From: Nanobdellota archaeon
Lineage (GTDB): Archaea > Nanobdellota > Nanobdellia > Pacearchaeales > GW2011-AR1
DNA: 29,727 nucleotides
Direction of reading: 5' to 3'
Assembly: GCA_038045565.1 (NCBI GenBank)
Contig: JBBSXX010000138.1
Location: 1 to 29,727 of the forward strand
Position 1 is the stretch's first letter; the number at the start of each line of letters is the position of its first letter. A program made the translations under genes and the position numbers. Positions 29,370 to 29,727 of this stretch are shown piece after piece. The notes beneath the pieces are model-generated. The model searched no databases and had not been told where the DNA came from. It saw only the letters and a list, made by a program, of their open reading frames with translations.

Positions 29370-29467
29370 TTAAAATCTACGTAGTAGATTTTAAGCCAAG
29401 AAAACATACTTGTTTTCTGGATCCAAAGAATCCTTGATTCTTTTGGCCACAAGAATCAGAGATTCTT
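29370..29467. repeat. Four consecutive short inverted repeats
   Basis: 29370..29394 (11-bp perfect), 29396..29420, 29423..29446 and 29451..29467 (7-bp perfect), all read directly. Confidence 0.85.
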
Positions 29468-29486
29468 AATGTTTAAATTATATGAA

Positions 29487-29588
29487 TGCGCCAGCCGGGA
29501 ATCGAACCCGGATCAATTGGTCTCTTCTGAATATCTTTTTAGTTATAATCAGTGGAAGCCAATGATTCTACCATTAAACCACCGGCGC
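29487..29588 (-). tRNA. tRNA-Gly(TCC) with 31-nt intron at 37/38 (intron 29522..29552); CCA not encoded
   Basis: Acceptor GCGCCGG/CTGGCGC+A, anticodon stem ATTGG/CCAAT, T-arm CCGGG-TTCGATT-CCCGG. Canonical BHB: CTTC/GAAG central helix with bulges CA|C and AG|A. Confidence 0.95.
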
Positions 29589-29632
29589 AATGTTTATATG
29601 TATTTTAGACTGGTTTTAAATCTTATTGTTAA

Positions 29633-29673
29633 CGCGCCCGAAAGGATTTGAACCTTTGACCTTTGGGTTAGGA
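29633..29673 (-). pseudogene. Isolated tRNA 3' half (anticodon CCT through acceptor strand)
   Basis: T-CCT-AA, CCCAA, AGGTC, AAAGG-TTCAAAT-CCTTT, CGGGCGC-G. No D-arm or 5' acceptor strand precedes it. Confidence 0.6.
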
Positions 29674-29727
29674 CGCCCGAGATAGGATTTGAACCTACAA
29701 CCTTCAGCTTAGGACGCTGCCGCTCTA
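29674..29727 (-). tRNA. tRNA with CCT anticodon (Arg-type), 5' end beyond the window edge
   Basis: ..TAGAGC-G-GCAGC-GTCCTAA-GCTGA-AGGTT-GTAGG-TTCAAAT-CCTAT-CTCGGGC-G. Atypical G32 and G27.A43 mismatch. Confidence 0.6.

Follow-up and report, generated by a model that had tools for sequence, protein, structure and literature searches.

Results

A tRNA gene fused to part of a second tRNA gene

The window analysed here, 29,727 nt long, is the whole of contig C138 from an archaeal genome (G000) whose assembly comprises 854 kb in 153 contigs with 29% GC. This genome is rich in intron-bearing tRNAs, and related contigs are labelled Woesearchaeota, Pacearchaeota or Nanoarchaeota, that is, DPANN archaea. 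At its right-hand end, on the minus strand, the window holds the 3' 54 nt of a tRNA-Arg(CCU) that we call tRNA A (Table 1): after the 3' strand of the D stem come the anticodon arm GCAGC-GTCCTAA-GCTGA, the variable loop AGGTT, the T arm GTAGG-TTCAAAT-CCTAT, the acceptor strand CTCGGGC and, as the last base, the discriminator G. Since the window is an entire contig, the truncation of tRNA A is due to the contig end rather than to biology; the Rfam tRNA model matches this segment over model positions 19-71 (31.9 bits), 5'-truncated by the contig end, and ARAGORN run on the window alone called no tRNA. Immediately after the discriminator base, with zero spacer, lies the 3' part of a different tRNA-Arg(CCU), tRNA B, consisting of the 3' part of the anticodon loop (TCCTAA), the 3' strand of the anticodon stem (CCCAA), the variable loop (AGGTC), the T arm (AAAGG-TTCAAAT-CCTTT), the 3' strand of the acceptor stem (CGGGCGC) and the discriminator G.

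The first-pass annotation had described this arrangement as a tRNA-Arg(CCU) fused directly to the 3' half of another, and both the minus-strand letters and the Rfam match bear this out. The 9-mer said to recur with a 41-nt period, GCGTCCTAA, is found at 29717-29709 and again at 29676-29668, and the differing anticodon, T and acceptor stems and the self-complementary T stems are all there. The G32 and the G27.A43 mismatch singled out in tRNA A are likewise present, but they are not unusual: the same two features occur in the intact B genes of four relatives (A-GTGGG-G-TCCTAA-CCCAA), and are thus lineage traits.

Table 1. Positions of the features that make up the locus, in the window and on the overlapping contig C109
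Feature	Position	Strand	Remark
tRNA A, 3' 54 nt (positions ~20-73)	29674..29727	-	tRNA-Arg(CCU) of the putative cassette; first 21 nt on C109
Orphan remnant of tRNA B (positions 33-73)	29633..29673	-	1-3 nt from intact B; acceptor strand pairs 7/7 with the stump
Native spacer between tRNA B and tRNA-Gly	29589..29632	-	Unchanged flank of the presumed invaded locus
tRNA-Gly(UCC), 31-nt intron	29487..29588	-	Rfam 54.2 bits; ARAGORN (introns enabled) Gly(tcc) i(38,31)
Stump of tRNA B (positions 1-24)	C109:4906-4929		Same strand as the B 3' half
Endonuclease ORF	C109:4966-5958		330 aa
tRNA A, full length	C109:5935-6009		Rfam 59.4 bits; ARAGORN Arg(CCT)

The locus probably continues on a second contig

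The last 55 nt of another contig of this assembly, C109, are exactly identical to window positions 29727-29673, and an overlap of this length is what contigs adjacent in a k = 55 assembly graph usually show. Joining the two contigs gives the order 5S rRNA, tRNA-Leu(UAG), B positions 1-24, a TATA-like box, an endonuclease ORF, tRNA A, B positions 33-73 and tRNA-Gly(UCC). Our case for this probable join rests on the overlap, the complementary halves of tRNA B, synteny, and other genomes of like layout. The 55-mer common to both contigs stops one base past tRNA A, at what we take to be the right border of an inserted cassette (window 29673/29674; C109:6010). A contig break 1 nt past tRNA A hints at heterogeneity in the population, or at a k-mer common to another strain that diverges there; loci of this kind fragment metagenome assemblies and can lead tRNA annotation astray.

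A misassembly at the contig end, joining two ordinary tRNA genes, had been raised at first pass, and the position of the feature speaks for it, the fusion occupying the last 95 nt of the contig with the break 1 nt from the A/B junction. However, the longest stretches common to tRNAs A and B are 9 and 12 nt, far below k = 55, and the overlapping contig does contain the B stump that a real insertion predicts. Moreover, the same junction architecture, in diverged sequence, lies inside long contigs of two other species, G007 (379 kb) and G045 (14.8 kb). Judged by these comparisons an assembly chimera is very unlikely, and we treat the junction as genuine.

tRNA B appears to be a resident gene interrupted by an insertion

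A search for GCGCCCG, the complement of the orphan acceptor strand CGGGCGC, found the B stump on C109: GCGCCCG-TA-GCTC-AGCCTGGATA-GAG, 1080 nt upstream of the B 3' half. The first-pass annotation had predicted a 5' half that begins with GCGCCCG and carries a TTGGG anticodon strand, of which only the beginning was found: the native 5' strand is GTGGG, the sole match to the pattern GCGCCCG...TTGGG is the remnant's own reverse strand, and the true stump ends before the anticodon stem.

When searched in 100 genomes of the same order with at most three mismatches, the B 3' half was matched in five. In G010, G017, G019 and G021 it lies within an uninterrupted tRNA-Arg(CCU) with tRNA-Gly(UCC) downstream. 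Intact B reads GCGCC(C/T)G-TA-GCTC-AG(C/T)(C/T)TGGATA-GAGC-A-GTGGG-G-TCCTAA-CCCAA..., and the same part of it in these four genomes differs from the remnant in G000 by the 1-3 nt given in Table 1. The tRNA-Gly(UCC) gene follows tRNA-Arg(CCU) at loci L009, L014, L017 and L018, and provides a synteny anchor with the empty-site genomes. The neighbours in G017 are those of the G000 locus, with a tRNA-Leu upstream and the same spacer downstream, in flanks that are 87% and 92% identical; the 3' part of B and the start of the downstream spacer match at 80 of 87 positions (92%), and B is uninterrupted there. Within the genus, seven species have a full-length B-like gene, and only G000 and G007 have a match to the 3' half alone. 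Given that relatives have an intact B, and so an empty site, at the same place, we interpret the G000 locus as filled: B positions 25-32 (CAGTGGGG) would have given way to a cassette of 1080 bp that consists of a promoter, the endonuclease gene and the spare tRNA.

Two adjacent tRNAs with the same anticodon might instead stem from a tandem duplication of tRNA-Arg(CCU), of which one copy decayed and beside which the endonuclease gene arrived independently; tRNA genes do duplicate. Against this, empty-site relatives have B alone, with no A beside it, and the endonuclease ORF overlaps tRNA A in all orthologues. In addition, A differs from B in three of the four stems (acceptor, anticodon and T), whereas the B remnant hardly differs from the B genes of congeners. 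We give a tandem duplication only a slim chance, and retain the reading of an insertion into B.

We considered whether B could still work, either as a split, trans-spliced tRNA of the Nanoarchaeum or Caldivirga type or as a gene with a giant intron that holds the endonuclease gene and tRNA A. Its 5' and 3' pieces have complementary acceptor strands and lie on the same strand 1.08 kb apart, the wealth of tRNA introns in this genome is in keeping with such a gene, and in one relative a canonical tRNA-Ser intron contains the gene of a related endonuclease (see below). The first-pass suggestion of a split or nested tRNA was right in that a GCGCCCG 5' piece exists, but not in its corollary of a functional split gene. 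Eight nucleotides of B, positions 25-32, are in neither piece; with them the entire 5' strand of the anticodon stem is gone, which makes that stem impossible. There is also no complementary trailer and leader for a bulge-helix-bulge (BHB) motif, the trailer-leader duplex (-5.8 kcal/mol) being weaker than the mean for shuffled sequences (-7.3 +/- 2.1 kcal/mol). Given the eight missing nucleotides and the non-complementary leader and trailer, B cannot be a working split tRNA. [quoted passage not shown] In other genomes, the stumps and remnants of B are decaying. Taken together, these sequence features indicate that B is a dead remnant rather than a split or intron-bearing gene, and we regard the chance that it still works as minimal.

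We also examined whether the 3' end of tRNA A could serve as a surrogate anticodon-stem strand for B. TCGGG would form four of five pairs with CCCAA, around an 8-nt loop, but this pairing is not kept in G007 or G045, and we rejected the idea.

Other features near these tRNA genes merit description in their own right. The 31-nt intron of tRNA-Gly(UCC) lies after position 37, and the orthologues in G019, G021 and G010 have no intron, which suggests that the genus has gained or lost it recently. Directly downstream of tRNA-Gly, positions 29400-29481 hold an ~80-nt repeat with many short hairpins; at least 20 more copies (83-93% identity) are dispersed over other contigs of the genome. At two loci in relatives, the last 13-20 nt of tRNA B (e.g. 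TTCAAATCCTTTCGGGCGCG) are repeated 50-110 nt downstream: in L010 (G010), at about 130-200, and in L012 (G007), past the B remnant. These repeats resemble what a further small insertion at the 3' end of the tRNA would leave behind.

The insert encodes a predicted LAGLIDADG endonuclease

A single ORF lies between the two pieces of tRNA B. Its last 24 nt (seven sense codons and TAG) are the first 24 nt of tRNA A, such that its stop codon is the D-loop TAG of that tRNA. All eight orthologous ORFs stop inside a tRNA in this way, at a TAG in the D loop or a TAA in the anticodon loop. The protein contains the motifs LLGDGW and IFDTDG, and residues G136, D137 and G138 and D242, T243, D244 and G245 are invariant in eight orthologues. 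Profile matches were borderline for the Pfam family LAGLIDADG_3 (PF14528; 23.1 bits against a cut-off of 22.5) and below the cut-off for PF03161 (18.9 against 25), and a sequence-profile search of the PDB returned no LAGLIDADG entry, only weak homeobox-like matches to the N-terminal 50 residues (E ~0.1). Structure prediction was more informative. An AlphaFold model built from the eight-sequence alignment has a mean pLDDT of 82, and the top 40 and more Foldseek matches to it are all LAGLIDADG enzymes, the best being PI-PfuI, I-Tsp061I and I-DmoI (E from 4e-9 to 1e-7), with target-normalised TM-scores of 0.75 for I-DmoI and I-Tsp061I. The model has the pseudo-dimeric alpha-beta-beta-alpha-beta-beta-alpha fold, preceded by an extra helical N-terminal region (residues 1-120). 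On the strength of motifs and predicted fold, we assign the ORF to the monomeric, double-motif LAGLIDADG homing endonucleases.

The first-pass annotation had proposed, among other readings, a scar of tRNA-targeted integration or recombination at the anticodon loop. We retain this in kind, but take an endonuclease cassette as the probable agent. In an integrase-type scar, a virus, plasmid or island would have recombined into the anticodon loop of tRNA-Arg and later been mostly deleted, leaving attL/attR-like pieces. Indeed, tRNA 3' halves are classic att sites, the 9-nt repeat GCGTCCTAA could resemble an att core, and a similar layout of stump, insert and tRNA in Caldiarchaeum has been interpreted as integrase-mediated (PMC3293823). 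However, the LAGLIDADG endonuclease is the only ORF in the 1080-bp insert, which contains no integrase gene, and B pieces 1-24 and 33-73 do not overlap: the site shows an 8-nt deletion, not a duplicated core. Nor is the complete tRNA a chimera of a host 5' half and an element 3' half, since both halves of tRNA A are non-B and perfectly paired. The same compact design in at least 34 genomes (see below) also argues against an integrase scar, to which we attach very little credence; insertion by way of the endonuclease remains our preferred reading.

In an endonuclease tree, the G000 protein groups with those of other genera (62-64% identity) before that of the congeneric G007 (53%), with support values of 89/82 and 90/90. 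Together with the almost undecayed B remnant in G000, this tree hints, with moderate support, at horizontal movement of the cassette.

The genome contains further LAGLIDADG genes near RNA genes. A second ORF of this kind on C109 (L124; 3905-4585, 226 aa, PF14528 48 bits) stops 22 nt short of the 5S rRNA gene (C109:4608-4721). A parallel cassette at the 5S rRNA gene was considered and rejected, as no 5S stump or remnant was found around this ORF. Three more LAGLIDADG genes of the same broad family (C34:1864-2472, C58:65-652 and C10:4062-4703) lie 60-115 nt upstream, on the same strand, of tRNA-Glu(UUC), tRNA-Leu(GAG) and tRNA-Leu(UAA), respectively; we found no convincing remnants of displaced tRNAs around these three pairs.

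tRNA A appears to be a working replacement for tRNA B

The full tRNA A, recovered on C109, has a perfect acceptor stem (GCCCGAG/CTCGGGC), and is the sole tRNA-Arg(CCU) that ARAGORN and Rfam found in the genome. We aligned nine cassette-borne tRNAs, orthologues of A, and found 97.6% of cloverleaf cells paired, with compensatory double changes at 10 of the 21 pairs, a result reached by none of 500 shuffles; sliding the cloverleaf by 1-3 columns reduces pairing to 35-42%. Conservation of this kind, in what is the only gene found for its anticodon, indicates that A is a working tRNA that now does the job of B.

The D arms and anticodon loops of A and B in G000 are almost alike, but across positions 26-31 and 39-43 the two tRNAs differ at 7 of 11, the anticodon stem being GCAGC/GCTGA in A and GTGGG/CCCAA in B. 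This contrast is consistent with the hypothesis that A escapes cleavage through divergence. The contrast is small elsewhere, with only 1-2 nt between the anticodon stems of cassette tRNA and remnant in L048 and L065, and at L052 a B-like tRNA follows the endonuclease gene; divergence can therefore not account for immunity at every locus.

The same design recurs in related genomes

A scan with the endonuclease alignment, covering one genome per species, yielded 291 relatives, and we kept 42 loci whose endonuclease is at least 40% identical. At 34 of the 42, a tRNA-Arg(CCU) on the same strand overlaps the end of the ORF or lies just past it. Most of the kept loci have a 5' tRNA stump that ends near position 24-26, with 3' remnants that have decayed to varying degrees. 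Judging from these layouts, the cassette design recurs in at least 34 related genomes. Two parallels are in G007, from the same genus (endonuclease 53% identical), and G045, from another genus (64%). Both have the order stump, endonuclease gene and A-type tRNA, followed directly by TCCTAACCCAA... and the rest of the B 3' half, and in each the acceptor strand of the B half pairs with the genome's own stump.

The right border varies among loci. tRNA A is fused directly to T33 in G000, G007, G045 and L059, a spacer of 3-8 nt follows it in L048, L054, L065 and L077, and the T arm alone is left in L053, L058, L061 and L062; some cassette loci have no recognisable 3' remnant. L048 retains B positions 1-25 and 27-73, which suggests a primary insertion point at about 25/26. 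If so, the direct fusion of A to T33 in G000 would reflect a further small deletion.

Upstream of the ORF, 17 of 35 loci have a TATA-like heptamer at a distance of exactly 29 nt from the ATG, and in 23 of the 35 such a heptamer falls within -50 to -22, compared with 14% of shuffled sequences. This spacing points to a promoter carried by the cassette and a leaderless mRNA.

Enzymes related to this one occur at other tRNA genes. A sister endonuclease clade (26-37% identical) is found at tRNA-Thr(GGU), with more distant members at other tRNAs, and in L033 (G017:C28, 1376-2168) tRNA-Ser(UGA) has a canonically placed intron of 718 nt that houses a related but shorter LAGLIDADG gene. Hence the same enzyme family uses both an intron lifestyle and a spare-tRNA lifestyle.

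Discussion

The fusion at the end of the window is very probably the right border of a mobile cassette, comprising an endonuclease gene and a spare tRNA gene, that invaded the resident tRNA-Arg(CCU) gene B. Its anatomy is what homing would be expected to leave, with an endonuclease gene inside its presumed target and pieces of that target on either side. We propose that the endonuclease cuts uninterrupted B close to where the D stem meets the anticodon stem. Repair of the break from a filled allele, with the B stump and the B 3' half (plus flanks) serving as homology arms, would then copy the cassette in. No intron would have to be spliced for the host to survive, since the cassette brings a tRNA of its own, and the differing anticodon stem should make tRNA A uncuttable. 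The overlap between the ORF and tRNA A would tie the endonuclease to the replacement, such that recombination could not separate them. A cassette that works in this way may still be mobile today.

The nearest described systems are the fungal mitochondrial mORFs, which create gene hybrids in Allomyces atp6 and in Glomus atp6, atp9, cox2 and nad3 (Beaudet et al., 2013; PMC3630166). In these, as in the cassette, a LAGLIDADG (or GIY-YIG) ORF enters an essential gene without an intron and brings its own copy of the part that it displaces, the native part being left as an unexpressed downstream remnant; the remnant resembles the sequences of close relatives, while the imported part is foreign (PMC3630166). 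The locus described here has the same two components, an imported copy (tRNA A, kept by covariation) and a native remnant (the B 3' half, 1-3 nt from congeneric B). Unlike the mORFs, the cassette sits in an archaeal chromosome, its target is an RNA gene, and it carries a whole tRNA gene rather than a 3' end only; its ORF ends inside that tRNA, and remnants lie on both sides.

SegB of phage T4 and other free-standing homing endonucleases perform "intronless homing" (Brok-Volchanskaya et al., 2008; PMC2330249). Like the cassette enzyme, SegB is encoded by a free-standing gene among tRNA genes; its recognition sequence belongs to a tRNA gene, and it promotes the inheritance both of itself and of nearby tRNA genes (PMC2330249). 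However, SegB is a phage GIY-YIG enzyme with an intergenic gene and no split resident tRNA, whereas the cassette has a LAGLIDADG enzyme inside its wrecked presumed target, overlapping the replacement gene.

In layout, the heterogeneous tRNA-Thr(GGU) locus of Caldiarchaeum subterraneum (Sugahara et al., 2012; PMC3293823) is also similar: it has a 5' tRNA fragment, then some 1.8 kb of inserted DNA and then a complete second tRNA of the same anticodon, the insert border is near 24/25, and a link to the origin of disrupted tRNA genes was proposed (PMC3293823). Unlike the cassette, that insert was described as recombinase-encoding and integrase-mediated; the study recognised no cassette of homing endonuclease and spare tRNA, nor did it report a directly fused 3' half (PMC3293823). 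The best structural matches of the cassette enzyme, I-DmoI, I-Tsp061I and PI-PfuI, are likewise archaeal and share its monomeric double-motif fold, but they reside in rRNA introns (I-DmoI and I-Tsp061I) or an intein (PI-PfuI), where splicing restores the host gene; in the cassette, nothing is spliced and a second gene restores host function. The work on LAGLIDADG-bearing group I introns of DPANN archaea deals with rRNA only (PMC6125680). Our full-text literature search found no description of an archaeal cassette that combines an endonuclease with a spare tRNA.

It is possible, although we consider it rather doubtful, that these cassettes form an undescribed class of archaeal mobile element that acts as a natural "cleave and rescue" drive, with its stumps and orphan halves serving as raw material for split tRNA genes and oddly placed tRNA introns. 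The endonuclease would destroy an essential resident tRNA gene, for which the element carries a resistant replacement, and the by-products would be promoter-bearing 5' stumps and orphan 3' halves.

To our knowledge, homing endonuclease genes have been thought to persist in essential genes only by way of introns or inteins, or else to lie between genes. Here, an endonuclease gene appears to sit inside an essential, single-copy tRNA gene, the damage being paid for with a complete spare gene at its own 3' end. If the proposed mechanism is correct, such cassettes would be a compact natural analogue of engineered cleave-and-rescue drives. They would also be a concrete source of archaeal tRNA gene fragments, which bears on the debate over the origin of split and intron-bearing tRNA genes, in which attention has so far mostly been on integrases (PMC3293823).
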